From the NCBI GenBank assembly GCA_016217925.1, contig JACRFK010000004.1, positions 133,869 to 197,868 on the forward strand: DNA of 64,000 nt. Reading direction: 5' to 3'. The notes beneath the pieces are model-generated. The model worked only from the letters and a program-made list of their open reading frames with translations. It made no database searches and was not told where the DNA came from. This DNA comes from Candidatus Kaiserbacteria bacterium. Lineage in GTDB: Bacteria > Patescibacteriota > Minisyncoccia > Phycocordibacterales > UBA2100. Numbering within the stretch: position 1 is the first letter of the stretch; each line of letters starts with the position of its first letter. Shown here in pieces: positions 3,241 to 62,356 of the stretch. Both the position numbers and the translations under genes were made by a program.

Positions 3241-3282
3241 GTCGCGTCCCGTCAATTGTTACGCGACCCGCTTTCTGTTAAT

Positions 3283-3306
3283 AGCCACTAGGGATTAGCC
3301 ACTAGT
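3283..3306 (+). promoter_or_regulatory. tandem TAGCCACTAG-GGAT-TAGCCACTAG motif (copy 1 of a recurrent motif)
   Basis: near-identical double motif also at 39214-39240 and 58884-58907, single copy at about 62337. Confidence 0.4.
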
Positions 3307-3383: not shown

Positions 3384-3650
3384 TTACTTCTTGAGACCGA
3401 GCTTCTTCACCAAAGTGCCGTACGAACGCTTGTTGGTCGCTTCCAAGTACTTCAAATGCTTGCGACGGTCGGCGACAAGACCCAAAAGCCCGCGGCGACT
3501 GTGCTTATCCTTGCGATTTTTATCCAAATGGACCGAGAGTTCCTCGATTCTACGCGTCAACACAGCCACTTGGACCTCCGGAGAGCCCGTATCAGTGTCG
3601 TGGCGGCGCGCTTTACCGATCTCGTTTTGCTTCTTACGCTTCGTAAGCAT
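3384..3650 (-). CDS. rpsO: 30S ribosomal protein S15
   Basis: 88 aa; HDTDTGSPEVQVAVLTRRIEELSVHL...HSRRGLL matches the S15 signature. Confidence 0.9.
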   Translation of the reverse strand: MLTKRKKQNEIGKARRHDTDTGSPEVQVAVLTRRIEELSVHLDKNRKDKHSRRGLLGLVADRRKHLKYLEATNKRSYGTLVKKLGLKK

Positions 3651-7431: not shown

Positions 7432-7512
7432 ATGGCGGCAGATTTGAAGGGGCTTAAGACGCAATTTCTCCCCGCCGGAGGCGGGTCCTCCTCCGGAGGA
7501 GAATACTTATGA
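7432..7512 (+). CDS. upstream ORF (26 aa) mimicking the Xer N-terminus; its TGA stop overlaps the xer ATG (ATGA)
   Basis: [26 protein letters not shown]; residues [10 protein letters not shown] match Xer residues 3-12 (9/10) with 8 of 10 codons synonymously different. Confidence 0.4.
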
Positions 7513-9686
7513 AAGACTTAAAGGGTTTGAAAACCGAGTTTCTGGAGTATATAGAAATTGAAAAAGGGCGGAGCGTGAAGACGGTCGAGAATTATGACCG
7601 CTATCTCATGCGGTTCCTCAATTTTGCAAAGGTGAAGTCCCCTGCCCAGATAACCGAGCAGATGGTGCGTGAATTCCGTATCACACTCAATCGTTCCGCA
7701 GGGGTTACAGGCACGATGAAGAAGAATACACAAAATTATCACCTCATCGCGCTGCGCGCGTTCCTCAAGTTCCTCCGCAAGCGTGATATCGAATCGCTCA
7801 ATCCCGAGCGTATCGAACTTGCCAAGGTCGGTGGACGCGATTTGGATCTCATTACCGCCGATGAGCTCAACAGGATCATGCGTGCGCCCACGGGTGACGA
7901 GCTAGGGGGTCTGCGCGACCGCGCGATCCTCGAACTTTTGTTTTCTACCGGTTTGCGCGTCTCGGAACTCTGCAATTTGAATCAGGATATTGACCTCTCT
8001 CGCGATGAGTTCTCGGTGCGCGGCAAAGGAGAAAAGGTGCGCGTGGTATTTCTCTCGGCGTCCGCGAAAAAAGCGGTGGCCGAATATTTGAAAAAGCGCG
8101 GTGATATGAGCAAGGCGTTGTTCGTCAGTTACGGCAAAGGCGGCACGAGCAAGGGAAAAGATTTACCGCGCATCACTCCGCGCTCCGTCGAGCGATTGGT
8201 AAAACAGTACGCGATAAAAGCGGGCATCACGCGCAAAGTGACGCCGCATGTCATTCGTCACTGTCTCCACGCGGAAACGCGAATAATGGGAAACCCTTCG
8301 CTCACAACGGCGAAGGAGTTGTTCGCATCCGAAAAGCAAAAGAAGGTCCTTGGATTTGATTGGAAAAACAATCGTCTCATGCGGGCCTCGATTAAGAGAC
8401 GTGAAACACATTCCACACAACGCCTGATTTCTTTATGGGCGGACGGCCGGGAAATTTGCTGCACCCCGTACCACAGCTTTTTCACCCCGAGCGTTAACGG
8501 TATTGTGCCGATACAAGCACAAGACCTGAAAGTTGGGGATTATGTAGCGGGAGTTCGCAGTGTTCAATGGTCCCAGGGAAGTAGACCCGAAAGCGAATCC
8601 ACGGACTTTTGGAGATTGCTTGGATATATTCTTGGTGATGGAACGCTTAGTGAGGCACGGCGAGGTATTATCATAAATGATAAAGAACGTCGCCACATTG
8701 ACCTATACAACGAAATTGTTTTTCGTGTGACGGGCAGGTGCGGAACCGTCACTAAATTGTCAGGCGGCAATGGGTACGCGCTCAATATCTACAATGTTGG
8801 TTTTCTGAAAAAGGTACGAGCTCTTGGAATTACACAGCGTTCAAAAGAACGGCGTGTCCCCGCGGGCCTGTTTCAGGAGTCCGAGACCGCGATCCGAGCC
8901 TTTCTTGCAGGCTATTACGATGCCGAAGGAAATAACGGCAGGATTAAGATGTTCTCCGCAAGTAAGGAACTTCTGAAAGACATACAAATGTTGCTGCTCC
9001 GGTTGTCTATCGAGAGCATACTGCTCCGCCGAGAGCGGCGAGTGAAACTTCCCCAAGGTCGGGTCATTGACCACGTCATATACATACTGCATGTGACGTA
9101 TCCACCAAGCGAGAATCGCTTTGTGGAACTCATACCAACATTCAAACAACGCATACGACCGAAAAAAGAGTGGCAGCGACTCGATATTGCATTACCTACG
9201 CAACCACTGATTCGAGGACTCTACCCCCTTTTGCTTGCCAAGAGGGGTTTCATCCATTGGCTCGGTAACCGTTATGGCATACGGTACCTGAAACGTTATA
9301 CAAGAATATGTACAACACCGCTGCTGCTCTCTGTGTTTCTTAAGGCCTGCAAAGAAAAAAGAATTCGAAATCCATTTATCAAGCAACTCGAGGTTCTCAA
9401 CCGACTCGATTCGATTCGATGGCTCCGAGTGAAGAAGCTGGAGATGGTCGGCGGTGTATCGAAAGTTTACGATTTCACGATAGAACCAACGCACAATTTC
9501 ATCACAGATGGTTTTATCTCGCACAACTCATTCGCGACTGACCTACTCGAAAATGGTGCCGATCTGCGTAGCGTGCAAGCGCTCCTCGGCCACGCCAACA
9601 TCGCAACGACCCAAGTCTACACGCACGTGACCGACAAACACCTCCGCGAAGTCCATCAGGCATTTCACGGCAAACGCCGCAAATAA
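7509..9686 (+). CDS. XerC/XerD-family tyrosine recombinase containing an in-frame intein
   Basis: N-terminal SAM-like domain; ...TPHVIRH then a 422-aa insertion then [34 protein letters not shown] (R-H box and catalytic Tyr region). Confidence 0.85.
8262..9527 (+). mobile_element. intein with LAGLIDADG homing-endonuclease domain inside the xer gene
   Basis: starts with Cys right after HVIRH; ends with His-Asn before Ser+1 (SFAT); block B TPYH; LAGLIDADG motifs [11 protein letters not shown] and [11 protein letters not shown]; C-terminal blocks [12 protein letters not shown]...ISHN. Confidence 0.8.
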
Positions 9687-9689
9687 CCT

Positions 9690-10427
9690 ATGAACGAGAA
9701 AATCGAAAATAATGAGACGAACACTATTCGCGGACCCGAACCGCTGCACGAGCAGAATATTTCCGTCATCGGCATGGGGCGTTTGGGCACCAAGCTCGTA
9801 GAGCGCTTGCAGGAAATAACGCCCCAGAACACGCATATCCGGCCGGTCGGAAATCGCGAGGAGAATAAACTCGCCGCATCGGTCTCCGACCTCGTTATTC
9901 TCACGGTGCGGCACGAACAAGTATCGGACACACTATCGGATATCGGACTGAAGCTCAGTATAGACGCGCAAGTACTTTCGTTTGCGACGCATGTTCCCGT
10001 AACGCTCCTCGAGCGCATCGGTGGCAAACCCTCCGCACGTTTTCTGTGCGATCCGTGGTTCCAAATGGGCGCGTACGTGCTCGGCGAGGGCTTTTCCACG
10101 AAGGGAATCGAGTTTATCTTCGATAATTTGACGGCAGTGAAGCCGGTACGCCTGCGCTCTGACGAGGAGCTGGAACAATACACGCACGAAATCTGCCATC
10201 TCTATGCGACGCTCTTTCTCAAAGCGCTCGGCGAGTTTCCGAACGCTGACGCACACCTGCAATTCCTCGCCGGCAAAATGAACGTGCGAGTTGAAGATCT
10301 ATTGAGTATTAATACAGGAGAGACTCCGCAGCAGGCGATAGCGCTTTTTGCCACACCAGGTGGCGTGACCGAGGCGATGATGAAGAAGTTACGCGAGAAT
10401 CCGGACATCGCACCTTCGGAGCTCTAA
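9690..10427 (+). CDS. pyrroline-5-carboxylate reductase-like NAD(P)-binding protein
   Basis: Rossmann ISVIGMGRLG at the N-terminus; C-terminal TPGGVTEAMMKKL resembles the ProC SPGGTT motif. Confidence 0.45.
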   Translation: MNEKIENNETNTIRGPEPLHEQNISVIGMGRLGTKLVERLQEITPQNTHIRPVGNREENKLAASVSDLVILTVRHEQVSDTLSDIGLKLSIDAQVLSFATHVPVTLLERIGGKPSARFLCDPWFQMGAYVLGEGFSTKGIEFIFDNLTAVKPVRLRSDEELEQYTHEICHLYATLFLKALGEFPNADAHLQFLAGKMNVRVEDLLSINTGETPQQAIALFATPGGVTEAMMKKLRENPDIAPSEL

Positions 10428-15852: not shown

Positions 15853-16647
15853 TCATTTCTTTTCGTGTCCGATTTCGCCGACAGTGGAACTATGATCGCG
15901 CATGAAATCGAACATCATGCGCAGCGTATGTGCTATCGTCGCGTCTTCGATAAGTACTGCGATCGGTCTCTCTTGTGCAAAAGAAAATATTGCTACCGTT
16001 TCTCCGTATATCGCGAATTCAGTGTCCATCGCGTAGCGCGCAGGAATGAACGAGGCTGTACGGCGGAATTTCTTGTCGTGTTTCGCCGCTTCGCGCGCCA
16101 CAGCCGAGTCAGGCGTTACATAGGCAACGTCTATACCGAGCCTTGTGCGTTTGCGCATGTAGTGTTCGATAAATCCCGGACGCAATTTCGTAAACACAGA
16201 TTCGAAGCCAGTGATCTCATATATCCGCTTCTGCGGATTGTTCTCCAGGGTGTCCTCAAAGGCCTTCTCTACGCCCTCAGGTCCTTCAAAGTAGCGTATC
16301 TTGGGAAGTGCGCGTCCCCTCTCCCGCAAGAGTCGCAGCTGTGGCAGCGTATCCGCCACCTCGTCTTTTGCGTCGAGGAGCTCTTTGCCGCGCCGCTCGA
16401 TATAAGAAGGAAGCAGGCCCGGATCGATTGACCGGAACATCGCTACTCCCTGGCGCCGTTCTTCAAAAGCGAGCCCCTTCCGCTTCAGCTCTTCAAGAAT
16501 CCCGTACGTCGTGGTGCGGTTCAGTCGCGCCTCCCGGGCGATCGCCGAAGCGTAGAGCGGGCCACTCGGAAGAAGCGCAAGCATCACACGCGATTCTTTC
16601 TCGGAGAGACCGATGCTCGTGAGGGCTTTTCTGATGGCAGGGGGCAC
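15853..16647 (-). CDS. TrmB-family transcriptional regulator (paralog 2)
   Basis: LTSIGLSEKESRVMLALL N-terminal HTH. Confidence 0.7.
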   Translation of the reverse strand: MPPAIRKALTSIGLSEKESRVMLALLPSGPLYASAIAREARLNRTTTYGILEELKRKGLAFEERRQGVAMFRSIDPGLLPSYIERRGKELLDAKDEVADTLPQLRLLRERGRALPKIRYFEGPEGVEKAFEDTLENNPQKRIYEITGFESVFTKLRPGFIEHYMRKRTRLGIDVAYVTPDSAVAREAAKHDKKFRRTASFIPARYAMDTEFAIYGETVAIFSFAQERPIAVLIEDATIAHTLRMMFDFMRDHSSTVGEIGHEKK

Positions 16648-22071: not shown

Positions 22072-22464
22072 ATGGTTGGTGACGCAGCGAGAAAAGAAGT
22101 TGGTCGCCTCGGGGAAGACATCGCCGCTCAGTTTCTTCTAAGGAAGGGTTTCAGTATCCTTGCCAGGAATTATCGGAAGCCGTGGGGCGAGATCGACATC
22201 ATTGCGGAAAAGGACGGGATTGTGCGGTTCGTGGAGGTAAAGGCAGTTTCACGTGAACCTCTGTCGAGTATTTCGGATGAGATATCCAACTACAGGCCTG
22301 AAGAGCAGGTGCATCCCACGAAGCTCAAGAAGATCTGCCGGACAGCTGAGCTCTACATGGCTAATAACAAAGACGAAAGGGAATTTCAGGTTGATGTAGT
22401 AGGCGTATTTCTGGACATGAGGGGCCGCAAGGCCCGCTGCCGGCTCCTGGAGCAAGTCCTGTAG
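22072..22464 (+). CDS. UPF0102/YraN-family endonuclease-like protein
   Basis: GEDIAAQFLLRKGFSILARNYR...GEIDIIA...RFVEVKA matches the YraN family. Confidence 0.7.
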   Translation: MVGDAARKEVGRLGEDIAAQFLLRKGFSILARNYRKPWGEIDIIAEKDGIVRFVEVKAVSREPLSSISDEISNYRPEEQVHPTKLKKICRTAELYMANNKDEREFQVDVVGVFLDMRGRKARCRLLEQVL

Positions 22465-22512: not shown

Positions 22513-23247
22513 CTAGACGGCCTTCCACATGAGTGAATGCATATTCCTGAATAAATCAGCAATATCTTTGTTCTCGATAACGACCGCAGAGAGATCCCGC
22601 AAGCTAATGAGGGCAACCTTTTCACTATAAATAAGCACGTCCACATTACTGTCGAACCAATCCGGGAGTTTTTTAGAGACCTTGTTTGAGGGCCCGTTCT
22701 TTTTACGTATCTCCTGTAGCGTTTTGTAGTGTTTGTCTGCGACGAACAGGTCGCGGCTCGCTATCGCGTATTGGGTTATAGATTTGTCAAAATCGTCGTA
22801 GTCTTGTTCGGTGAAATTCTCGAAGAATGTCGTAGGTGGGAAAATCGAATACACTACCCCGACTGTCTTGAAGAGATCCTCGTAGATGAGTTTCAGTTGC
22901 CGTTTCCCCTCGAAATACGTCACTCGCGGCCTATTTACGGCATACTCGTGAATAGTACCCATTTCAAGGATTGCGCCCTCTATATTGGCCATATTTCTAC
23001 GAAAGGTGGTGAAAACTCTCTGGGGGGCCACGGCGGAGTAATAGGTGCGTTTACCGGAGGGTTCACGTGTAACGTAGTCTTTTGCGAGCAGTTGGTCTAT
23101 GTACTCATAGCAAGATGCCCGTTTTATGCTGGTTTCTCGGGAGATCTGAGAAACGGTCATCCGTGGTCGTTTCAGTAGGGCGAGATATATATTTGCCTCT
23201 TTTTCATCCAGACCCATTGTCCGGAGTGCCTCCAGTGAGCGCTGCAT
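22513..23247 (-). CDS. TrmB-family transcriptional regulator (paralog 3)
   Basis: LRTMGLDEKEANIYLALL N-terminal HTH. Confidence 0.7.
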   Translation of the reverse strand: MQRSLEALRTMGLDEKEANIYLALLKRPRMTVSQISRETSIKRASCYEYIDQLLAKDYVTREPSGKRTYYSAVAPQRVFTTFRRNMANIEGAILEMGTIHEYAVNRPRVTYFEGKRQLKLIYEDLFKTVGVVYSIFPPTTFFENFTEQDYDDFDKSITQYAIASRDLFVADKHYKTLQEIRKKNGPSNKVSKKLPDWFDSNVDVLIYSEKVALISLRDLSAVVIENKDIADLFRNMHSLMWKAV

Positions 23248-26497: not shown

Positions 26498-27238
26498 TCA
26501 GACTCCCTTCTCCCACACGATATTGAATATCTGCCGCATCGCCTCAGCCGTCTGCTTATCGTCGATTATGGTCGTTTGAAGCTCGCGTTCATTGGTAATA
26601 CGGATGAAATTCTCGGCTATTTCAATCGATTGCGTCGGCGGGTAGGTGTAGTCCTTCAGGTATTTGACTTTTATATCATCGTTATTCTTTGCCAATTTGA
26701 CCATGTCATTCTCAGTGTTACCTTTCTCCACGATAACCTTGAAAGATATTCCGTCGGCAACAGCTTTCCTGTCCCATCTTTCGTACAGATGAAGGACCTT
26801 CTCGTCAACCCCCTTAAGATTGCTATAGAAGCAGCACAGCGTTTTACCGAGAAGTTCCCGATACTTGTAATCGCATGCCTGCGCGACACCGCTCATGCCG
26901 CTAAAGTACAGCACATCGGGTCTCCGGCCACCGAGCGAGTGCAACTGTGGCACTATAGCTCGCACCGATTTGAGCCGCGATTCCTGTTCGGTGAGGAATT
27001 CATTGATATCTCGTGCCGAAAAAAGGGCTTTTTTCGCATGTGGGACCTTGAGCACCAACCCTTTCTTGCGTAAATCTTCCAAAGTCACATACACAGTAGG
27101 TTTTTTAACGTCGCATGTTTCCGCGATACGGTATGCAGTACCCGTACCAAGCGATAAGAGAGCAAGGTATACGACGGACTCTTTTTCGGTAAGCCCGATT
27201 TCCTCCAACTCCCGAACAAAACCCGATTCTTTAACCAT
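26498..27238 (-). CDS. TrmB-family transcriptional regulator (paralog 4), divergent from the transporter gene
   Basis: LEEIGLTEKESVVYLALLSLG N-terminal HTH. Confidence 0.7.
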   Translation of the reverse strand: MVKESGFVRELEEIGLTEKESVVYLALLSLGTGTAYRIAETCDVKKPTVYVTLEDLRKKGLVLKVPHAKKALFSARDINEFLTEQESRLKSVRAIVPQLHSLGGRRPDVLYFSGMSGVAQACDYKYRELLGKTLCCFYSNLKGVDEKVLHLYERWDRKAVADGISFKVIVEKGNTENDMVKLAKNNDDIKVKYLKDYTYPPTQSIEIAENFIRITNERELQTTIIDDKQTAEAMRQIFNIVWEKGV

Positions 27239-31424: not shown

Positions 31425-32039
31425 TTACACCAACACCTTGTCGACGATGCCGTATTTGACGGCCTCTTCGGCTGTCATGAAGAAGTCGCGGTCCACGTCG
31501 GCGGCGATTTTCTCGATCTTCTGACCTGTATTTTTTGCGAGTATCTTATTGAGGCGCTCGCGGAGTTTTAATATTTGTTTTGCGGTTATCTCGATGTCCG
31601 CCGCCATACCTTCGGCGCCGCCGCTCGGCTGGTGGATCATCACCTCCGCATTCGGAAGCGCGAAACGTTTTCCCTTCTGTCCGGCAGAGAGCAGTACGGC
31701 ACCCATCGAGGCCGCCATACCGACACAGACAGTGGAGACATTCGGCTGGATGTGATTCATCGTGTCGAGGACAGCAAGGCCGGCCGAGACGTGTCCGCCC
31801 GGGGAGTTGATGTAGAAAGAGATATCCTTTTTCGGATCTTCGGATGCGAGGAAGAGGAGTTGGGCAACGACGAGATTTGCCACGTCGCTATCAATAGGCC
31901 CACCGAGAAAGACGATACGCTCTTTGAGAAGGCGCGAATAAATATCGTATGCTCGCTCGCCCATCGAGGTCTTCTCGATGACCATAGGCACGAGCATTTG
32001 CGAACGTGATGCGCCAGATTGCGATTTTGGAGTGTTCAT
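31425..32039 (-). CDS. clpP: ATP-dependent Clp protease proteolytic subunit
   Basis: [11 protein letters not shown], active-site regions [11 protein letters not shown] and HQPSGG. Confidence 0.9.
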
Positions 32040-35224: not shown

Positions 35225-36331
35225 TTAATGCTCGTGGTCGTGTCCCGTATGGGCGACGGGCGCGGCATTTCCTTCCAAGAAACGCAGCGTCGCGTCGTTG
35301 CGCATCGCATGCGAGATGTGTGCGCGCAGCGCGATGGGGTCAGCTTGCGGGTAATGCTTCTTTGCATGTTCAAGCTCGTGCTCGAGCGACTTTTCATCCG
35401 GTTCAATATGTTCCTTACGCGCTATTTCGGTCAGTATCAGGCGTACCTTTGCGCGCTTGTCGGCGGTGTCTTTCCAATCGGCACGGACCTGCTCACGCGT
35501 TTTCTTGGTCTGTGTGAAATACGATTCGAGCGTCTGGCCGATGCGCGAGAGGTCGTCCTTGAGGCGCGCCTCCATGTCGTCGAGCTCGTATTCGCGCAGT
35601 GCCGAGGGGTACGAAATCTTCGATTCTTTGACGAGCTCGTCGAGGATAAGGGCGCGGCGCTTCTCGGCAGCCTGCATTTCTTTTTCGGTCTTGATGTTTA
35701 CGCGAAGTGCTTCGGTGAATTTCTCCGCACTTTCGTACCCGAGTGATTGCACAAATGCGTCGTCGAGCTCAGGCAGGTCCTTCAATTCGGCGGCGCGCGA
35801 TTCCTCCGCCGCCTTTTGTGCATCGGTGCCGCCTTCAATTTTATCAATACGTGCCCGCTCACGGCGCAGATGTGTAAGCGCCTGTGTATGCTCCTCGTCG
35901 GACACGGAGATTTCTTCTTTTTTGTCGGTATGCTTCTTGGCGATTTTCTTGTAATCCGGCAGTTCCACGGAAGGAGCAAGCGCGGCGCGTGCGGTAAATT
36001 TGACGGGCTTGCCCAATTCCGGCGTATCGGTCGTCACGCGCGGGGACTCGATAATAAGAAGCTTTTCTGCCGCAAAAAGCTCGGGAAGCTCATGCTGTAT
36101 CGCCATTTGCACGGCCTCACGCAAAATCGCGCCTTCTCCGTATACGCGTACAATTTCTTCTTCCGGCGCTTTGCCCGGACGGAAACCGTCGAGCTTTGCG
36201 GTCTTCGTTATTTCTTTCAACGCTTCAGCCCGGTAGTGGGCAAGCGCTTCTGCGGTAATCTGCGCTTGTACTTCGGCTTCCCACGCCGTCTCGTCGCGCG
36301 AGGTTTTTACGTCCGTAAGATAATTTGACAT
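35225..36331 (-). CDS. tig: trigger factor, apparently lacking the central PPIase domain
   Basis: ribosome-binding signature KLDGFRPGKAP in the N domain; acidic C-terminal chaperone domain; 368 aa versus about 430 for full-length Tig. Confidence 0.65.
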   Translation of the reverse strand: MSNYLTDVKTSRDETAWEAEVQAQITAEALAHYRAEALKEITKTAKLDGFRPGKAPEEEIVRVYGEGAILREAVQMAIQHELPELFAAEKLLIIESPRVTTDTPELGKPVKFTARAALAPSVELPDYKKIAKKHTDKKEEISVSDEEHTQALTHLRRERARIDKIEGGTDAQKAAEESRAAELKDLPELDDAFVQSLGYESAEKFTEALRVNIKTEKEMQAAEKRRALILDELVKESKISYPSALREYELDDMEARLKDDLSRIGQTLESYFTQTKKTREQVRADWKDTADKRAKVRLILTEIARKEHIEPDEKSLEHELEHAKKHYPQADPIALRAHISHAMRNDATLRFLEGNAAPVAHTGHDHEH

Positions 36332-37861: not shown

Positions 37862-39202
37862 CTATTCAGCGTCCTTCTCCTTGTCTGTTGCAACTTCCTC
37901 CTGCTGCTCTTCGACCTTTTCTGATGCGATGTCACGGTCCTGGGCGACGGGGTCGATATTCTTCTCGCCGATGTCGGCCGGCTCTTCACCCGCAGTCATC
38001 TCCTTCTCGGTTTCTTCGAATGCACTTTCTTTTTGCGTGATGTCTTCCACTTGTGTGTCCTGGATTTTGGGAGCCTCAGTGCCGTCAGTCGCGGCGATTT
38101 GTTCACCGCCTGTCGAGCGGATATCTATCTTCCAGCCTGTGAGGCGTGCGGCGAGGCGGACGTTCTGCCCACCGCGGCCGATGGCGAGCGATTGCTGATC
38201 TTCGGCGACTTGGACAGTCGCGCGATTCTCTTCTTCGTTGAGTTCAATCGACAGTACTTGCGCGGGCTTCAGCGATTCCTTGACGAAGTCTTCCGGTTTC
38301 TCGGACCATTCCACGACGTCGATTTTCTCACCACCCAATTCGGAAGTAACGACTGCGACGCGCACACCGCGCTGGCCGACGAGTGCGCCGACCGGATCGA
38401 TGTGATCATCTTTGGAAAATACCGCAATCTTGGCACGGCTACCCGGTTCGCGGACGATGCCTTTGACCTCGACGATGCCACTGGCCATTTCCGGTACTTC
38501 GGCCTCAAACAATTTCGTGAGGAATCTAGGGTGCGAGCGCGAAAGGCGGATGAAGGTACCGCGCACGCCCTCGTCGACGCGCAAGAGAAGCGCACGCACG
38601 CGCTCGCCTTGTCGGTAGCGCTCGCCAGGGATCTGTTCGTCGTAGGGAAGTATGGCGGTCGCGCGGCCAAGGTCGACAAAAAGGTTGCCGCGCTCAAAAC
38701 GCTGCACGTGGCCCGTAACGATGTCGCCTTCTCGCTCCCCGTATTCTTGGATGATGCTCGCGCGCTCCGCTTCGCGCACTTTCTGCATGATTACCTGTTT
38801 AGCGGCTTGCGCGGCGATACGCCCGAAATCCTCGCGCGTCTCGAGCGGGAAGGAAATTTCCTCGTCGAGCTGTGAATCTTTCTTGATGCGGCGCGCGTCG
38901 GCGATCATGATGTGCTGCTCCGGATTGAAGCGCGAGCGGTGGTCGTCGTCACCCGTCGATTCTTCGCCCTCTTCGCGTACGAGCGTCTTGTCCACGACTA
39001 TTTTCGCCTGACGGAATTCCATGTCGCCTGTCGCGGGATTAAAGGTGGCGCGGATTATTTGTCCGCGCTTGCCGTATTCGCGGCGGTATGCGGCAGCAAG
39101 CGCTGTTGCAAGGGCATCGACAACAGATTCGCGTGAAATACCGCGCTCCTGCTGGAGCTCGTCGAGGGCTGAGTTGAGGGATTTGAGGTCAAATAGAGCC
39201 AT
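37862..39202 (-). CDS. nusA: transcription termination/antitermination factor NusA
   Basis: N-terminal domain, S1 domain (GDIVTGHVQRFERGNLFVDLG), KH domains (LAIGRGGQNVRLAARLTGWKIDI), acidic tail. Confidence 0.9.
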   Translation of the reverse strand: MALFDLKSLNSALDELQQERGISRESVVDALATALAAAYRREYGKRGQIIRATFNPATGDMEFRQAKIVVDKTLVREEGEESTGDDDHRSRFNPEQHIMIADARRIKKDSQLDEEISFPLETREDFGRIAAQAAKQVIMQKVREAERASIIQEYGEREGDIVTGHVQRFERGNLFVDLGRATAILPYDEQIPGERYRQGERVRALLLRVDEGVRGTFIRLSRSHPRFLTKLFEAEVPEMASGIVEVKGIVREPGSRAKIAVFSKDDHIDPVGALVGQRGVRVAVVTSELGGEKIDVVEWSEKPEDFVKESLKPAQVLSIELNEEENRATVQVAEDQQSLAIGRGGQNVRLAARLTGWKIDIRSTGGEQIAATDGTEAPKIQDTQVEDITQKESAFEETEKEMTAGEEPADIGEKNIDPVAQDRDIASEKVEEQQEEVATDKEKDAE

Positions 39203-39213
39203 AGGAATAGTAG

Positions 39214-39240
39214 TTAGCCACTAGGATTTAGCCATTAGTA
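39214..39240 (+). promoter_or_regulatory. tandem TAGCCACTAG motif (copy 2), 12 nt upstream of the nusA start codon
   Basis: TTAGCCACTAGGATTTAGCCATTAG; in gene orientation the nusA leader ...CTAGTGGCTAACTACTATTCCTATG matches the rpsG leader. Confidence 0.4.
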
Positions 39241-39304
39241 AGGTCTTTTAAAAAAAGCGTCCGCCAGAGGCGGAACGAATGAGAAGAGTTTAGCAGATGT
39301 TACG

Positions 39305-39673
39305 ATGATGTCAATGATAGATAATTCAGATGAAGTGTTCGAAAAATACGATAAACCCTTGCTTGCCTATGAAGAATTCGTACAGCGTTGCAGCAATTTT
39401 GCGAGTTTTTTTGCTCCCATAGGCAGCATGGTTGGTGACATGAATAGAAGCAAGCCTGTTTACCAAAGCTGCCTTGCGGACCATCCAGAACTCGCGGCGT
39501 TGGCAGCAGAACTTCAGGCGTATGATTTTTACAAATTTGATATAGATGAAAAAACGGGAAGGCCGATTATTAAGCCGCCCGACCCTCAAAGGCCCGTGAT
39601 GCTACGCAAGTTATATGATGCATACCTTTTAATAAGACCTTACGCAAAGAAAAAACAGGATTTGCCTATCTGA
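39305..39673 (+). CDS. hypothetical protein
   Basis: 122 aa; lower GC than its surroundings; immediately upstream of pilB. Confidence 0.4.
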   Translation: MMSMIDNSDEVFEKYDKPLLAYEEFVQRCSNFASFFAPIGSMVGDMNRSKPVYQSCLADHPELAALAAELQAYDFYKFDIDEKTGRPIIKPPDPQRPVMLRKLYDAYLLIRPYAKKKQDLPI

Positions 39674-42713: not shown

Positions 42714-42741
42714 AGTATGGAGTATGAAGTATGGAGTATGG
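42714..42741 (+). repeat. heptanucleotide tandem repeat AGTATGG x4 (one copy AGTATGA) spanning the pilin-1 start codon
   Basis: 28 bp; each unit contains an ATG; it is the reverse complement of the CTCCATA repeat in pilin-3. Confidence 0.7.
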
Positions 42742-44535: not shown

Positions 44536-45135
44536 ATGGAACGCTCATCACCTTCTAGCGGCATGGGTCTCCTCGAGGCAGTGGTATGGGTCGCGGTCTT
44601 CACTTCAGCGATGCTCGCTCTCACGTCTTCCGTCCTCTATTTCTATCGCACAAGCAATTATGCGATACAGCAAGGGTCAGCGACCGCTTCAGCGCAACGC
44701 GGCATTGACCTTATGATCCGCACTATCCGCGAGGCCTCGTATGCAAGCAACGGCGCGTATCCGATCGTCTCTATGGGAAACAACGACCTGAAATTTTATT
44801 CAGAAATTGACGGCGATCCTGCAATCGAGCGGGTGCACTACTATTTCTCCGGTACGGCGCTTGTGAAGGGAGTCATCGATCCGACGGGGGATCCGGCCGT
44901 CTACAGTGGAGTCGAAACGATCTCGACCACATCTGAGGACGTGAGGAACGTTGCTCAGGGCACATCACTTTTTTCCTACTATGATAAGAATGGCGCGCTC
45001 CTGAGCGATCTAACGAAGATCGGTGACGTGAGATACATCTCGGCGACCTTGCTCGTCGATGTCGACCCCGTCCGCTCTCCGACGCCGCTTTCGCTCCGCT
45101 CTTCCGCCGCGATGCGCAACTTAATAGGGAAATAG
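44536..45135 (+). CDS. pseudopilin / minor pilin
   Basis: short leader MERSSPSSG then MGLLEAVVWVAVF with Glu at +5. Confidence 0.7.
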   Translation: MERSSPSSGMGLLEAVVWVAVFTSAMLALTSSVLYFYRTSNYAIQQGSATASAQRGIDLMIRTIREASYASNGAYPIVSMGNNDLKFYSEIDGDPAIERVHYYFSGTALVKGVIDPTGDPAVYSGVETISTTSEDVRNVAQGTSLFSYYDKNGALLSDLTKIGDVRYISATLLVDVDPVRSPTPLSLRSSAAMRNLIGK

Positions 45136-45136
45136 T

Positions 45137-46642
45137 ATGGCGTATAGCGTATCGCGTATGGCGGGAGAAAGAAAAAGAGCAGATGCACGCTCTCTCCATA
45201 CTCCATACTCCATACTCCATACGCGCGCGCAGCGCGGCGTGACGACGATGCTCGTCATCGCGTTTATGGGGATTTTCCTCCTCATCATGGGCACTATCAC
45301 AAGCTACATATTCGAACAGGCGAAGTATGGGCGTGCTCTCTACAGTCGTGAACAGGCCCTGAGCATCGCCGAGGCGGGGCTCGAATATTATCGATGGTTC
45401 CTCGCGCACAATCCCAACAATCTGACCAATGGCACTGGTCTACCTGGTCCGTATACCTATACGGTGAGCGACCCCGAAGGTGGCACGCTGGGCTCGGCAT
45501 CAATATCGGTGGCGGGCAACTCGCAGTGCGGCGTCATCCAATCAATAGATATAACCTCGCAAGGCGCCTCGGACAGCAATACAACCTTCAAACGAACGCT
45601 TCTCGGGCGATACATGCGCAGATCTGTCGCTGCGTATTCGTATTTGTTGAATAGCAACGTATGGGCGGGAGCGGACCGCGCGATTACAGGCCAGTATTTT
45701 TCCAATGGCGGTATCCGTATGGACGGCAGTAACAACTCAGATGTCTCAAGTGCTCTTACCACCTGGAACTGCACGTCGAGTTACGGTTGTTCTCCTGCCG
45801 TGAATCCCGCAGCGGGGGTACTCGGGAGCGGGTCGGGGTCGGCGCTCTGGCACAATTCGGCCGCATCGATAGATTTTGCCGGTATCGCGACCAGCCTTAC
45901 GAACCTGAAGACCTACGCGCAAACAGGCGGCGGATTGTATTTCGCACCCTCTACCGGATCGGTCAATAGTCGCGGGTACCACATGATCTTCAAGTCGAAC
46001 GGGACGGTCGACGTGTACCGCGTGACGGGAACGACGGGCATAACAGGCTATCCGGATGGCAGCACAGCCACGACCGAATACAATATCATCGCAACGCAGA
46101 ATTTGCTCGGCAACTACACGGTACCTTCGGGCTGCCGCTTGATATTCGTCGAGGATCGCGTGTGGGTCGAAGGTGTCGTAAGCGGCAAGGTTACCATCGT
46201 CGCTGCGACACCGAGTGACACAGGCACGACTCCGTATGTGATCCTCCCCAACAACCTTACGTATGCGACCAATGATGGAACCGCTGGCTTTACCGCCATT
46301 TCGGAATCGGATGTGCTCATACCGCTCAACTCACCGAACGTGATGGAGATCCACGGTATCTTCGTCGCGCATAATGGCCGATACGGTCGCAATCATTACA
46401 CGACCTCGAGCCTGATTTCGCAATGGGACCCGTACGTCCTACGCTCGCAGCTGACAACCGTCGGCACAATTGTTTCCAGTGGCCGCACCGGTACGAAGTG
46501 GATTAATACTTCCACAGGAGTTACCACGTCGGGCTACCAAACACGCATTGATGCATACGACCAATTGCAGGCGACCGATCCGCCGCCGTTTACCCCTTCT
46601 GCCTCTACCGACTACAGTTATGTGCTGTGGAGAGAACAATGA
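45137..46642 (+). CDS. large type IV pilin-like protein with prepilin-type N-terminal domain
   Basis: leader ...HTRAQRG followed by VTTMLVIAFMGIFLLIMG; the leader is paralogous to pilin-1 (LHT.Y.I..TR.A.RGVT). Confidence 0.65.
   Translation: MAYSVSRMAGERKRADARSLHTPYSILHTRAQRGVTTMLVIAFMGIFLLIMGTITSYIFEQAKYGRALYSREQALSIAEAGLEYYRWFLAHNPNNLTNGTGLPGPYTYTVSDPEGGTLGSASISVAGNSQCGVIQSIDITSQGASDSNTTFKRTLLGRYMRRSVAAYSYLLNSNVWAGADRAITGQYFSNGGIRMDGSNNSDVSSALTTWNCTSSYGCSPAVNPAAGVLGSGSGSALWHNSAASIDFAGIATSLTNLKTYAQTGGGLYFAPSTGSVNSRGYHMIFKSNGTVDVYRVTGTTGITGYPDGSTATTEYNIIATQNLLGNYTVPSGCRLIFVEDRVWVEGVVSGKVTIVAATPSDTGTTPYVILPNNLTYATNDGTAGFTAISESDVLIPLNSPNVMEIHGIFVAHNGRYGRNHYTTSSLISQWDPYVLRSQLTTVGTIVSSGRTGTKWINTSTGVTTSGYQTRIDAYDQLQATDPPPFTPSASTDYSYVLWREQ
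45194..45221 (+). repeat. perfect heptanucleotide tandem repeat CTCCATA x4 inside the pilin-3 leader coding region
   Basis: 28 bp encoding LHTPYSILHT; not a multiple of three per unit. Confidence 0.75.
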
Positions 46643-54055: not shown

Positions 54056-54646
54056 CTATTTCTGCGCTTCATCGAACCGTTTTTCTATCACGCTCCAATT
54101 GAGGTTTTTGAAGAACGCGTCTATATATTTGCCCTTGCCCGTCGCACCGTAATCGAGGAGAAATGCGTGTTCCCATACGTCGAGCGCAAGGAGTATGGGA
54201 AGCGTCACGAAATGTCCCTGGTGCTGCTCGCCGGAAAATCCCGAGAGGAGCTCGTCTCCTTTTTTGTCGTAGTACAAAATCGCCCAGCCGGGCCCGCGCA
54301 TGTTGCCAATCTTCGTCATGACCTCGACGACGTCTTTCGGTTTGTATGTCTTTTGGAGCGCCTTCCCGAGCGCGCCACCCGCCGCAAGCTCTTTGGCGCC
54401 ACCCTCAAACTGCTCGAAGTAGTGCTCATGCAGCCGCATGCCGTCGAATTCAAATGAACGGCGGCGGATGAGCTCGGCGACGGGATGCATATTTTTCTCC
54501 CAATCTTCCATAGCGAGTTCCGCAATCTGTTTGGATATCGCATTAAAATTCTTTACATAGCCTTCGTAGAGCCCGATGTGCTGCTTCACGGATTCATCCG
54601 AAATGCCTTCGAGCGAGGGGAGAGTAAACTTTTTTGCTTCGTACAT
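54056..54646 (-). CDS. Fe/Mn superoxide dismutase
   Basis: metal ligands in HH..YV and DVWEHAF motifs; 196 aa. Confidence 0.85.
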   Translation of the reverse strand: MYEAKKFTLPSLEGISDESVKQHIGLYEGYVKNFNAISKQIAELAMEDWEKNMHPVAELIRRRSFEFDGMRLHEHYFEQFEGGAKELAAGGALGKALQKTYKPKDVVEVMTKIGNMRGPGWAILYYDKKGDELLSGFSGEQHQGHFVTLPILLALDVWEHAFLLDYGATGKGKYIDAFFKNLNWSVIEKRFDEAQK

Positions 54647-56672: not shown

Positions 56673-56712
56673 TAATTTACAATTTTGCAATTTACAATTT
56701 TCAATCAATTTC
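56673..56712 (+). repeat. left AT-rich inverted repeat flanking the four-helix-bundle gene
   Basis: AATTTACAATTTTGCAATTTACAATTTTCAATCAATTTCC; partner at 57102-57130. Confidence 0.5.
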
Positions 56713-57101: not shown

Positions 57102-57130
57102 GAAAATTGTGAATTGTAAATTGAAAATTA
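57102..57130 (+). repeat. right AT-rich inverted repeat flanking the four-helix-bundle gene
   Basis: GAAAATTGTGAATTGTAAATTGAAAATTA, about 80% complementary to the left repeat. Confidence 0.5.
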
Positions 57131-58469: not shown

Positions 58470-58886
58470 ATGTCGACCATAAATCAACTTACGCGTAAGG
58501 GCCGGGCAAAAAAGACCTGGCGCACGAAGACCATCGCGCTTTCGCGCGGTTTCAACACGCTCGAAAATCGCCCTTCTTTCTACTCCGCACCCTTCAAACG
58601 CGGTGTTTGCACCCGTGTGACGACTAAGACTCCCCGCAAACCGAACTCCGCTATCCGCAAAATCGCGCGCGTACGCCTCACCAACGGTATGGAAGTCACG
58701 GCCTACATTCCGGGCGAGGGCCACACTCTGCAAGAACACTCGGTCGTTCTTATCCGCGGTGGACGCGTGAAAGACATCGGTGTGCGCTACACGATAGTGC
58801 GCGGCAAATTAGATGCGACAGGCGTCGAGAAGCGTCGTCGCGGCCGCTCTAACTATGGTGCCAAGAAGCCCAAGGCTAGTAAATAG
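58470..58886 (+). CDS. rpsL: 30S ribosomal protein S12, with an ~10-aa insertion near the N-terminus
   Basis: [12 protein letters not shown] ... [58 protein letters not shown]. Confidence 0.9.
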
Positions 58887-58907
58887 CCACTAGGGACTAG
58901 CCACTAG
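58884..58907 (+). promoter_or_regulatory. tandem TAGCCACTAG-GGAC-TAGCCACTAG motif (copy 3) between rpsL and rpsG
   Basis: begins at the rpsL TAG stop codon; inverted-complementary CTATTGGCTA lies at 58946-58955 just upstream of rpsG. Confidence 0.4.
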
Positions 58908-58968
58908 AAAATACATTCAAATTCAGAATTCACTAATCACTAACCACTATTGGCTAACTACTATTCCC

Positions 58969-59430
58969 ATGCGACGCCCCACAAAAAACAGAAAACAGCC
59001 GCAGCCGGACGAAGTGTACGGTTCGTTCAAAGTCGCGAAGCTCATCAACTACGTAATGGAACGCGGCAAGAAAGACACCGCCCGCAAAATCGTATACAAG
59101 GTGATGGAAGAATTGAAGAAAGAAGGCGATCCCGTAACTGTTCTTGAAGATGCGCTTGAGAAGGCCTCGCCATCGGTAGAGGTGCGCTCTCGCCGCGTCG
59201 GCGGTGCCAACTATCAGGTACCTCGCGAGGTGAATCCCGCCCGCAGAATGGCGCTCGGTATGCGCTGGATAGTGGAGGCCGCCGAAGGCACTAAGGGCAA
59301 GCCGATGAACGAATCTCTTCTCGCCGAAATCCTCGCCGCACACAAAGGAGAAGGCGCCGCCGTCACCAAAAAAGAGACGACGCACCGCATGGCCGAGGCC
59401 AACAAAGCCTTCGCCCACTTCGCTTGGTAA
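58969..59430 (+). CDS. rpsG: 30S ribosomal protein S7
   Basis: KFVNYVMERGKK..., VEVRSRRVGGANYQVP. Confidence 0.9.
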   Translation: MRRPTKNRKQPQPDEVYGSFKVAKLINYVMERGKKDTARKIVYKVMEELKKEGDPVTVLEDALEKASPSVEVRSRRVGGANYQVPREVNPARRMALGMRWIVEAAEGTKGKPMNESLLAEILAAHKGEGAAVTKKETTHRMAEANKAFAHFAW

Positions 59431-59436
59431 TTTTCC

Positions 59437-59946
59437 ATGCATGTTACGCGTGAGGATGCGCAGATTCTCGCCGGCAAACTGAAAGAGGCAAGTCCTCATA
59501 TTCACCATATTGAATTGTTTGGAAGCGTGCTGCGGAATGGTTTGGGGAATGATGCCGACCTTGTTCTCATCGTCGACGAAGGCATTGCACGACGGTGGTG
59601 GAATGAGATGGGGGACGAGCTGCGTGTCCGTATGGGTACGCGCTGGCTTCCTCTCAGGCGATTCATAAAAACGTACCTCACGTGGCTCGACACGATGAGC
59701 ATTCGGGGGAGGAAACATCGCCGCATCGCACGCGCGTCGGAATTACTCGGCGTCAACATCGAGAAATTGGTCACTGAGTACAAGCCCGGCGCGATGGTCG
59801 ATATCTTCCTTTTCCCTGAAACGTGGCGTACCGAAAAAACACCAAATATGTCGGTTCTATGCTCGCTTGCCGGCGTCATCCGGGACCACAAGGAAACTCG
59901 GCTTTTTTTGGAACGTACCGCGCACAGTGCTATTCGGCTCAATTAA
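59437..59946 (+). CDS. minimal nucleotidyltransferase-domain protein inserted between rpsG and fusA
   Basis: ELFGSVLRNGLGNDADLVLIVD is the GS..D.D nucleotidyltransferase signature; 169 aa. Confidence 0.55.
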   Translation: MHVTREDAQILAGKLKEASPHIHHIELFGSVLRNGLGNDADLVLIVDEGIARRWWNEMGDELRVRMGTRWLPLRRFIKTYLTWLDTMSIRGRKHRRIARASELLGVNIEKLVTEYKPGAMVDIFLFPETWRTEKTPNMSVLCSLAGVIRDHKETRLFLERTAHSAIRLN

Positions 59947-60013: not shown

Positions 60014-60118
60014 ATGGCACGGGATTACCCACTCGAAAAAGTCCGCAACCCCGCAGGAAAGCGCTATGCACTTCCGACGGGGCATGCTTCGGTAGCTAAC
60101 TTCGCATTAAATATATGA
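60014..60118 (+). CDS. upstream ORF (34 aa) mimicking the EF-G N-terminus; its TGA overlaps the fusA ATG (ATGA)
   Basis: [34 protein letters not shown]; 11 of its first 12 residues are identical to EF-G, with all nine compared codons synonymously different. Confidence 0.4.
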
Positions 60119-62256
60119 GTAGAGATTACCCGTTAGAGAAGGTGAGAAATTTTGGGATAGTAGCGCACGTGGATGCTGGCAAGACGACCACATCCGAGCG
60201 TATTTTGTATTACACGGGCGAGAGCCACAAAATCGGCGAAGTACACGAGGGCAACACGGTGACCGACTGGATGGAACAGGAGCGCGAGCGCGGCATCACC
60301 ATCACCGCCGCCGCCATTACTTGTTTCTGGAATCCTTCGTACATGGGCACCGACCTCTCGGCGAAAGTGCGCTTCAACATTATTGATACCCCCGGACACA
60401 TCGACTTCACTTCCGAAGTGAAGCGTTCCATGCGTGTGCTCGATGGCGCGGTCGTCGTCTTCGACGGCGTCGCCGGTGTCGAGCCGCAATCGGAGACCAA
60501 TTGGCGCTATGCCGAAGAAGCCAACGTGCCGCGCATCTGCTACATCAACAAACTCGACCGCACGGGCGCGTCATTCGAAAAGTCATACGCCTCTATTCTC
60601 GACCGCCTTTCCACGAAAGCCGTGCGATTCCAAATCCCCATCGGACTCGAAGAAAAATTCGAGGGCATCATTGATTTGCTTTCCATGAAGGCGTATCACT
60701 TCGAAGGCGAAATGGGAAAGAACGTCGTCGCCGGAGACATCCCCGCAAACATGATGGACGAGGCCAAGAAATATCGTCACGAACTCGTCGAACGCATCGT
60801 TGAAAATGACGATGCGGTCATGGCGGACTTCTTGGACGGCAAAGAAATTCCGCTCGACGTCCTGAAGTCGACGCTCCGCAAGGGCGTTATCGCGAATAAG
60901 ATTTTTCCCGTACTCACGGGCAGCTCTCTCAAGAACAAAGGCGTGCAGCTCGTCCTCGACGCGGTTGTCGATTATCTCCCGTCACCGAAAGACATGCCGG
61001 AATCAAAAGGAGTCAACACAGATACAGGCGCGGAGGAAACGCGTCCCGCATCCGATGAAGCACCATTTGCTGCGCTCGTTTTCAAAATTCAGACAGACCC
61101 GTTCGTCGGACAGCTCTCGTTCTTCCGCGTCTATTCGGGTACCTTTACCGCGGGCGACACAGTCTACAATTCCGCCAACAATAAGAAAGAGCGCGTCGGA
61201 CGCATCGTGCGCTTGCAGGCGGATAAGCGCGAGGACGTGAAAGAGGTCTACGCAGGCGAAATCGCCGCCGCGGTCGGCATGAAAGAAGTGAAAATCGGAC
61301 ACACACTCTGTGATGTAGCGCACCCCATCGCGCTCGAATCCATCGTCTTCCCGGAGCCCGTCGTCTCGATGCGCATTGAGCCCAACACAAAAGCCGACCA
61401 GGAAAAAATGGGTATGGCGCTTTCAAAGCTTTCTGACGAAGACCCGACCTTCCGCATCAAGTCGGACCCCGAGACGATGGAAACTATCGTATCGGGAATG
61501 GGTGAGCTCCACTTGGAAATTATCGTCGACCGCATGAAGCGCGAATTCGGCGTGCAGGCGACGACCGGCAAGCCGCAAGTCGCATACCGCGAGACCATTC
61601 AGGGTACAGCGGATGTTGAATACAAACACATCAAGCAGACGGGCGGTCGCGGTCAGTATGGCCATGTGAAAATCCGCGTGAAGCCGCTTGAGCCGGTAGA
61701 AGAAGGCAAGAAGGTCAAGAACAATGTAGAGCGCGACGACCATTTCGAGTTCATCAACAACATCAAAGGAGGCGTCATCCCGCAGGAATACATCCAGCCG
61801 GTGAAGAAGGGTCTCATCGAGGCGATGGAGCGCGGCATTCAAGCAGGATTCCCCGTTGTCGATATTTCCGTCGAGCTCTACGACGGCTCGTACCACGATG
61901 TGGACTCATCCGAAATTGCGTTCAAGCTCGCCGCCATCAACGCAATGCAGGAGGCGATGCAGAAGGCGAAGCCCGTCATCCTCGAACCGATAATGAAATT
62001 GGAGGTCGTCGTCCCGGAGAAATTCATGGGCGACGTGACGGGTATGATAAACAGCAAACGTGGCGCCATCGAGGCGATGGGCGAGCGCGGTCAGGCGCGC
62101 GTCATCACCGCGAAAGTTCCGCTTTCAGAGCTTTTCGGCTTTACCACTCAGCTCCGAAGTTTGACGGAGGGAAGAGGAGTACCGAACTTGGAGTTCTCGC
62201 ACTACGCAGTCGTACCGAAGACCGCAGCAGACGCTGTCATCGCAAGCAGGAAGTAA
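60115..62256 (+). CDS. fusA: translation elongation factor G
   Basis: G domain [21 protein letters not shown]; domains II-V; 713 aa. Confidence 0.95.
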
Positions 62257-62356
62257 CCGCCCATTTTCTTAACAAAACCCGACATGTGCACACGCCGCGT
62301 TTTGTGCATCGGTAGGGGTGTAAGATATAGGTATTACCACTAGGGGCTAATTCTCT

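Follow-up and report, generated by a model that had tools for sequence, protein, structure and literature searches.

Heptamer arrays set against start codons have been described in detail once, as the TAACTGA repeats in 2015; elements of this kind have rarely been studied. TAACTGA repeats were found in marine Beggiatoaceae, in some cyanobacteria, and in Bacteroidetes, and ribosomal protein (r-protein) operons are among the places where they occur (MacGregor 2015, PMC4679880). They comprise two to six copies, include "split" sets, and mostly end 1 nt before the start codon, with no Shine-Dalgarno (SD) sequence; approximately 87% of the sets face start codons (147/170), with a single inverted case (PMC4679880). 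A further precedent comes from the Bacillus hut leader, where the hexameric protein HutP recognizes XAG triplets on both sides of a terminator stem, with 4 nt of any sequence separating one triplet from the next (PMC2425495).

Here, we analyzed a 64,000-nucleotide stretch of Candidatus Kaiserbacteria DNA (the window), which carries an element of the same kind as the TAACTGA repeats, its closest described analogue, but of a different family. In both, 7-nt units are repeated in tandem, sets are split with a related heptamer (here TAGCCAC with TAGGGAT), and the sets are almost all intergenic; those oriented toward a start codon most often leave a 1-nt gap, with no SD. In both, sets may overlap the upstream stop codon, place stops in all three frames, occur in r-protein operons and at translation genes, and are patchily distributed among lineages. 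The number of units, the split sets, the small gap to the start codon, and the lack of an SD were thus all found here; the unit TAACTGA was not. Instead of that fixed word, the Patescibacteria arrays follow CTANNNN, with only CTA invariant, and nearly half of them face stop codons; many arrays are paired, inverted and facing outward on either side of a hairpin. That a second, independent system exists in another superphylum, with a different unit and the same geometry (1 nt before the AUG, no SD, all-frame stops, ribosomal genes), suggests a general principle and not a curiosity. Gene expression signals in Patescibacteria are almost unstudied, and the arrays matter for gene calling, start-codon choice, and expression tools.

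The likeness to HutP and TRAP sites lies in the invariant XAG every 7 nt, with three triplets per protein face and two sites flanking a terminator stem; TRAP sites are (G/U)AG repeats. The stop-facing arrays read as TAG-N4 repeated four to five times, where a HutP-type site has at least three XAG triplets with 4-nt spacers, and next to hairpins they have the exact look of a HutP site. However, the two hut sites share the same RNA polarity, whereas the second array is inverted here; start-facing arrays read CUA-N4 in the mRNA; and many genes are concerned instead of one operon. Two sites of the same polarity were not found, and a Pfam analysis of the window proteins returned no HutP, TRAP, Csp, or CsrA-type protein. 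HutP is, by analogy, a mechanistic precedent and not a claim of membership.

Heptanucleotide arrays in the window

A sequence-only reading of the window had reported a recurrent tandem motif near several genes. The tandem, TAGCCACTAG-N4-TAGCCACTAG, is real at three sites: 3282-3305 (N4 = GGAT; the earlier placement was off by 1 nt), 39215-39238 (N4 = GATT; second copy TAGCCATTAG), and 58884-58907 (N4 = GGAC). On the minus strand, the 10-mer also occurs singly, in inverted orientation, at 58947-58956 and at 62340-62349. With up to one mismatch allowed, TAGCCACTAG has eight matches in the window versus 1.39 expected, and 0 of 100 dinucleotide shuffles had eight. As had been proposed, the 10-mers lie near start codons (7-61 nt), and their distribution is strongly non-random relative to genes. 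Every copy, when oriented toward its closest gene, reads CTAGTGGCTA(A).

The earlier reading had missed that the 10-mers are the most regular stretches of longer, CTA-phased heptamer arrays. The arrays are CTA/TAG-phased heptanucleotide repeats, (CTANNNN)n, usually of 4-5 units (28-35 nt). Because CTAGTGG is their most frequent unit, TAGCCACTAG corresponds to two unit boundaries on the opposite strand. The 22-nt leader said to be shared by nusA and rpsG, TGGCTAACTACTATTCC-N-ATG, was recovered as 17 identical nucleotides, then N, then ATG, and consists of the last two array units, CTAACTA CTATTCC. Phased runs of at least four units occur four times in the window versus 0.01 expected, and period 7 yields nine runs, compared with 0-2 for periods 5, 6, and 8-11. 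The arrays and their neighboring genes, the latter assigned by Pfam and by reading the open reading frames, are as follows.

3222 (ATG), minus strand: NYN-domain gene, true ATG by alignment with locus L035
3278..3305, minus strand: 4-unit array CTAGTGG CTAATCC CTAGTGG CTATTAA, in the spacer from the rpsO end (3384) to the NYN gene
3384-3650, minus strand: rpsO
37862-39202, minus strand: nusA
39204..39238, minus strand: 5-unit array CTAATGG CTAAATC CTAGTGG CTAACTA CTATTCC in the nusA 5' leader (nusA ATG, 39202-39200)
39250..39314, minus strand: predicted nusA promoter, leader hairpin, and T-run (context, outside the array), an architecture kept in the relatives L210-L217
58392-58886, plus strand: rpsL
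58873..58907, minus strand: stop-facing 5-unit array CTAGTGG CTAGTCC CTAGTGG CTATTTA CTAGCCT at the rpsL end
58877-58911, plus strand: TAG-phased reading of the rpsL-end array, TAGTAAA TAGCCAC TAGGGAC TAGCCAC TAGAAAA
58933..58967, plus strand: start-facing 5-unit array CTAATCA CTAACCA CTATTGG CTAACTA CTATTCC before the rpsG ATG (58969)
58969-59430, plus strand: rpsG
60115-62256, plus strand: fusA
62340..62353, plus strand: 2-unit remnant CTAGGGG CTAATTC before the ATG (62357) of the PKD gene
From 62357, plus strand: gene for a secreted PG-binding/PKD-repeat protein

The gap between array and ATG is 1 nt at nusA and rpsG, 3 nt at the PKD gene, and 55 nt at the NYN gene. At rpsL, the stop codon TAG (58884-58886) is itself the first triplet of the tandem copy, and the array overlaps the stop. 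An Rfam search of the window returned tRNAs only. The tetranucleotide CTAG is scarce in the window, with 45 sites where base composition predicts 246, and the arrays, ~200 nt in all, contain 8 of these sites; this scarcity is real, yet it does not discriminate among the hypotheses considered below.

Other heptamer families were also observed. At 42714-42741, four copies of AGTATGG, with ATG in all three frames, stand at the start of a 605-amino-acid CarboxypepD_reg-domain gene of the pilus operon; four copies are also present at the orthologous site in L210. An inverted heptamer pair (GTATGGC-type x4 at 45135-45163 and CTCCATA x4 at 45194-45222) occupies the first ~90 nt of the open reading frame 45137-46642, and this arrangement is kept in L210, but with swapped words (GTATGGA... 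/ CACCATA...). Such a pair might fold into a hairpin or make a pilin-like leader prone to frameshifting. Finally, inverted arrays (AATTTAC x4.4 at 56674-56705 and AAATTGT x3.7 at 57104-57129) flank a 23S-rRNA-intervening-sequence (IVS)-protein gene (PF05635; 56715-57092) located between rpmB and an M50 peptidase gene. The IVS-protein gene looks like an inserted cassette, because rpmB and the M50 gene are adjacent without it in L220, whose spacer cannot be aligned to that of the window.

Geometry and distribution of the arrays

A pattern scan of 185,579 species genomes returned at least 119 loci. Most of the matches listed were plain (TAGCCAC)n microsatellites in unrelated phyla, which appear because N4 = CCAC satisfies the pattern, while approximately 25 among the matches listed were window-like (CPR-type) loci; these came from MAGs labeled Kaiser-, Nomura-, Harrison-, Yanofsky-, and Roizmanbacteria, Paceibacterota, "Saccharibacteria," and Patescibacteria group. 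The same heptamer word recurs in CPR MAGs with a GC content of 33-58%. Identified by reading their N termini, the genes behind the arrays are mostly highly expressed housekeeping genes, including those for r-proteins L17, L13, S9, S4, L7/L12, and S7, as well as nusA, ssb, adk, pyrG, serS, and ppa. One genome (L090) carries a near-identical module twice, and another (L089) carries three related ones. The viral contigs scanned contained only microsatellites. A metagenome scan with S7 serves as a negative control only, the best relatives being merely 63% identical and without the motif, and no period-7 enrichment as a general CPR feature was seen in 757 kb of S7-derived loci. In the literature searched, the exact sequences matched only unrelated primers and tRNA fragments, and no report of such arrays in Patescibacteria was found. 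The array element is lineage-restricted, found hard against start and stop codons in one sublineage of Kaiserbacteria.

The geometry was examined in a sample of 72 runs from the window, L210, L220, and 24 loci from the pattern scan, nearly all CPR-labeled. The median distance to a gene boundary is 1.5 nt for the CTA-> end of a run, versus 46 nt for the inward end, and in 57 of the 72 runs the CTA-> (outward) end is closer to a boundary than the other; read as CTA->, the arrays point out of the intergenic region. Thirty-two runs face start codons and 27 face stop codons. Start-facing arrays end ~0-10 nt before the ATG, and stop-facing arrays begin at or just past the stop codon. For the 22 unambiguous start-facing arrays, the gap to the ATG was at most 3 nt in 11, and an SD-like sequence was seen in one. 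Arrays contain 3-6 units, with a mode of 5 in both classes, and unit composition is identical between the classes; within sets, TAGCCAC alternates with TAGGGAT, TAGGATT, or TAGGGAC. UAG or UAA occurs in ~81% of start-facing units and 100% of stop-facing units, and all three mRNA frames are covered. The constants among arrays are the CTA triplet, the 7-nt phase, the length of ~5 units, and the position hard against a codon. In its fullest form, the module runs from the stop codon of gene A through a TAG-phased array, often a long hairpin, and a CTA-phased array to the ATG of gene B 0-10 nt further on, as between rplQ, rplM, and rpsI in L089. The two arms of a pair often differ in build, one having a 14-nt and the other a 7-nt period.

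Two further patterns were noted in passing. The rpsL-rpsG spacers of five S7-related metagenome contigs (L134, L137, L138, L143, and L152) contain other short words as forward and then inverted copies: GAATGAA; ACGAAT/ATTCG; TCAGCTA/TAGCTGA; CGCTGA/TCAGCG; TTCTAAT/ATTAGAA. In Acidobacteriota, Chloroflexia, Armatimonadota, and other phyla, (GTGGCTA)n is followed within ~20-50 nt by (TAGCCAC)n, forming long potential hairpins (L037, L050, L074, L099, L101, L118, L119, and others).

Arrays and promoters at nusA, ppa, and pilB

On the nusA strand, the order of elements is promoter, hairpin, T7 run, array, and ATG. The predicted promoter is sigma70-like (10/12; TTGACA-16-TGnTAAACT, with TTGACA at 39314-39309 and TAAACT ending at 39287, minus strand). 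It is followed by a terminator-like leader hairpin (39274-39260, minus strand) and then by CGC and the T7 run, all upstream of the array. The predicted fold of the nusA leader consists mostly of this hairpin (z = -2.13), which is likely a transcription attenuator, possibly serving NusA autoregulation. Using NusA homologues, eight Kaiserbacteria neighborhoods (L210-L217) were collected. The promoter, hairpin, and T-run were kept in all eight (TTGACw-17-TATACT, then hairpin and T-run, at about 9830-10000), while the array was found in one, L210. In the other seven relatives (79-87% NusA identity), no CTA-phased run was present in 21 kb each. The L210 array (91% NusA identity) reads CTAACAA CTAATAA CTACCAA CTAACAA CTGCTTA t ATG; its words differ from those of the window, and the phase, the five units, and the 1-nt gap are shared.

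Two further arrays were found in L210, before ppa and pilB, and all three L210 arrays are solo. In the window, ppa and pilB are leaderless-looking, with TACACT or TATAAT 6-7 nt before the ATG. L210 has the same -10 boxes with a 35-nt array inserted before the ATG. Since these arrays sit between a conserved -10 box and the ATG, start-facing arrays appear to be transcribed, SD-less 5' leaders. The window and L210 offer natural alleles "with" and "without" the array, a leaderless gene versus a 35-nt array leader behind the same -10 box, which makes the question directly testable with reporters.

At the other sites, the evidence also spoke against a promoter or operator. No promoter or terminator was predicted in the rpsL-rpsG spacer. 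The motif at rpsG was absent in L219 and among the 40 more distant S7 loci listed, and degenerate in L220; an array was retained at the orthologous site only at the NYN gene in L035, where it lies 7 nt from the ATG versus 55 nt in the window. The sequence-only reading had proposed a lineage-specific promoter/operator element or leader RNA structure. A lineage-specific, gene-linked element in leader or intercistronic RNA agrees with these data, while the promoter/operator part does not: separate conserved promoters stand upstream of the arrays, and the motif is missing upstream of most orthologues, an outcome that the sequence-only reading itself had named as refuting. We conclude that the element is very probably a transcribed heptamer array and not a promoter or operator.

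Two ideas about initiation signals were set aside. Alternative SD/anti-SD pairing was ruled out by the normal GGAGG-type SDs of other window genes, and the tandem 10-mers, tried by hand as -35/-10 elements, had spacings unfit at NYN and rpsG before the upstream promoter evidence overtook the idea. As a separate observation, TAnAnT boxes lie 6-8 nt before the ATG of many window genes (e.g., at 22072, 39702, 41490, and 50871 and, on the minus strand, 22513-23247, 31425-32039, 35225-36331, and 54056-54646), suggesting widespread leaderless mRNAs.

Candidate functions and alternative explanations

As a whole, the data are best explained by a heptamer-array element with a post-transcriptional role, a reading to which we give a probability of about 0.45. 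In this proposal, the arrays would act after transcription, in mRNA. An invariant triplet every 7 nt with free 4-nt spacers could form a platform for an oligomeric or multi-OB-fold single-strand-binding protein, as suggested by HutP, which reads XAG-N4, and by Csp/S1-type OB folds, which bind approximately one heptamer each. Beside an SD-less AUG, the platform would set translation initiation, and where a stop codon and a hairpin are its neighbors, read-through or the stability of the mRNA. UAG or UAA in all frames before the start and after the stop may further favor termination-reinitiation at SD-less starts. We hold this function, as described, tentatively and at somewhat less than even odds. 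It is favored by several signs of constraint. The NYN arrays of the window and L035 agree at 28 of 29 positions, within a spacer that has otherwise diverged and carries indels (adjacent coding regions, ~78% identity); the nusA arrays keep phase, five units, and a 1-nt gap despite changed words; the same word recurs across CPR MAGs of GC 33-58%; and the array-preceded genes are mostly highly expressed housekeeping genes.

Other findings count against a post-transcriptional role. The 55-nt gap between array and ATG at the NYN gene is one. Arrays are gained, lost, and re-worded between close relatives (79-92% protein identity), and this rapid turnover speaks against an array being essential to the regulation of any individual gene. 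L100 has canonical -10 boxes downstream of the array and before the ATG, so some arrays may be outside the mature mRNA, and the presence of other heptamer words in the same genome fits a general repeat-generating process. Moreover, because both classes share the same composition, transcripts carry CUA-N4 in one class and UAG-N4 in the other; to read both, one RNA-binding protein would have to recognize a shared YUAR core, or else the reader would act on DNA. In its most extended form, which we consider a long shot, the proposal is that some Patescibacteria possess a so far unrecognized post-transcriptional system of "punctuation." Its reader, an oligomeric single-strand-binding protein of HutP/TRAP-like or multi-OB-fold (S1/Csp) type, would recognize a YUAR triplet every 7 nt; five-unit arrays between transcription start and AUG would turn leaderless genes into factor-controlled, SD-less leadered genes; and post-stop arrays would tune read-through or stability at hairpins, jointly coordinating ribosomal, NusA, and growth-related genes.

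The main rival is that the arrays are selfish or near-neutral repeats, microsatellite-like or MITE/REPIN-like insertions that grow in 7-nt steps, are tolerated in non-coding DNA, and have no function. Kaiserbacteria spacers are tiny, with 7 nt between rpsL and rpsG in L219 and 6-8 nt between -10 box and ATG, and insertions must touch start or stop codons. Turnover at rpsL-rpsG is fast: the spacer is 7 nt with no array in L219, 43 nt with one degenerate array in L220, and 82 nt with two arrays in the window (L218, the closest relative by EF-G, is rearranged upstream of fusA and uninformative here). The re-wording among close relatives, the identical composition of start- and stop-facing arrays, the outward-facing, terminal inverted repeat (TIR)-like bracket layout, the near-identical modules within L090 and the related ones in L089, and the other heptamer families of the window, one of them a pair around the inserted IVS-protein gene, all fit such repeats. 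(TAGCCAC)n microsatellites are also widespread in unrelated phyla and on viral contigs; like the short tandemly repeated repetitive (STRR) sequences of cyanobacteria, they are intergenic 7-nt repeats that sometimes form inverted pairs, and Pirellulaceae, Brevundimonas, Chamaesiphon, Acidobacteriota, and others have long arrays of TAGCCAC itself. Those arrays are, however, long (up to 15 or more units), homogeneous, and untied to start or stop codons at 0-10 nt, whereas the CPR arrays are short (~5 units), heterogeneous at the four spacer positions, and hard against a codon.

Similarly, the layout recalls MITEs and REPINs (Correia, REP/BIME) in its inverted ends around a short hairpin interior and its intergenic, multicopy occurrence, and such elements can supply terminators or processing sites. 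The L090 and L035 modules are TIR-like, the latter with an additional stop-facing array after rpsO. In contrast to MITEs, the ends are phased heptamers with variable words and many arrays are solo; in the window, the rpsL-rpsG arms are too dissimilar for TIRs, no conserved interior or target-site duplication was seen, and no transposase associated with the arrays was identified. The strong orientation bias of non-palindromic units, with CTA on the sense strand before ATGs, the bounded length with its mode of five units, the NYN array conserved as an island, the nusA phase, length, and gap kept while words change, and the same word in CPR lineages of very different GC also weigh against functionless repeats. 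We consider this explanation unlikely on balance, yet a serious competitor.

According to a second alternative, inverted arrays pair over the spacer to form an RNA structure that couples stop and start in translation or serves as an RNase III-type processing stem. In the predicted minimum free energy (MFE) fold of 58875-58975, the two sides of the rpsL-rpsG spacer do pair, as the sequence-only reading had suggested: UAGCCA with UGGCUA and UAGUA with UACUA (z = -2.45; 2 of 200 shuffles folded as well). Many CPR modules have the form array, hairpin, inverted array, and the inverted arrays around the IVS-protein gene recall IVS stems, which are processed by RNase III. However, the predicted pairing is modest and not conserved: the two arms share only one good 10-mer, and the upstream arm is missing in L219 and L220. 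Because most arrays are solo (nusA, NYN, and PKD in the window, and all three in L210) and arms are dissimilar, often with different periods, pairing cannot be a general role, and we regard it as an improbable explanation of the arrays.

Slightly less probable again is that the arrays act only as an all-frame stop "reset," releasing ribosomes at gene borders through stop triplets in every frame on both strands and with no dedicated factor. A TAG every 7 nt gives stops in three frames, and CTAG and CTAA, which as CTA(A/G) account for 75-81% of units, give stops on both strands. TAACTGA arrays share the all-frame stops (PMC4679880), and a 34-codon upstream open reading frame (uORF) that ends in ATGA at the fusA start suggests that stop-start coupling is used here. 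This reading accounts neither for the CCAC/GTGG that different lineages conserve, nor for the C that never varies in CTA, nor for the antisense-strand position of the invariant triplet in start-facing arrays, and some arrays, such as that of L210 ppa, have almost no sense-strand stops.

Promoter or operator DNA, with the tandem 10-mers as -35/-10-like elements or transcription factor sites for ribosomal and transcription genes, is largely refuted and very unlikely. The sites do lie upstream of nusA, rpsG, NYN, and a secreted-protein gene, the window encodes an ECF-type sigma factor and four TrmB-family regulators, and TTAGCCACT bears what we take to be a superficial likeness to CIRCE (TTAGCACTC) and the DnaA box (TTATCCACA). 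Against this, the arrays have independent promoters upstream of them and stand at varying places relative to -10 boxes, and half of them face a stop codon. The phase is kept even where words change, most orthologous upstream regions carry no array, and 2-6 copies at a 7/14-bp period are atypical of operators. A DNA uptake sequence for natural transformation is the least likely of all: ComEC and a type IV pilus (competence genes) are encoded in the window and Neisseria uptake sequences often occur as inverted pairs near terminators, but instead of one conserved word at ~1/kb, also within genes, we found five sites in 64 kb strictly at gene borders, a word that differs even in the closest relative and is not shared with L210-L217, and an unexplained polarity toward genes.

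Several resemblances were also rejected. A CIRCE/HrcA operator is an inverted repeat (TTAGCACTC-N9-GAGTGCTAA) found upstream of chaperone operons, whereas the copies here are either direct, with a 14-nt period, or inverted and separated by 20-90 nt, and the genes are not chaperones. Likenesses seen by eye to the tRNA D-loop, a 16S h18 segment (GGCTAACTAC), the DnaA box, sigma54 sites, and the TrpR operator were dropped as coincidental.

Some further features of the window were observed alongside the arrays. Between rpsG and fusA lies a 169-amino-acid open reading frame with no assigned function (59437-59946), and the same slot holds different cargo in each of L218-L220 (DUF5765 and glyoxalase, PaaX_M, CMAS and FabA). 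The first 12 codons of EF-G are repeated, in different coding, at the beginning of the 34-codon uORF (60014-60118), where fusA starts in relatives, and the final ATGA of the uORF overlaps the real fusA ATG (60115); it looks like a recombination remnant now serving as a coupled uORF. At 7509-9686, a tyrosine recombinase (Phage_integrase with a SAM-like N-terminal domain) is interrupted by an intein with a LAGLIDADG domain. The four TrmB-family HTH regulators (~245-265 amino acids; 231-998, 15853-16647, 22513-23247, and 26498-27238, all on the minus strand) are paralogous, and such paralogues are also carried by relatives.
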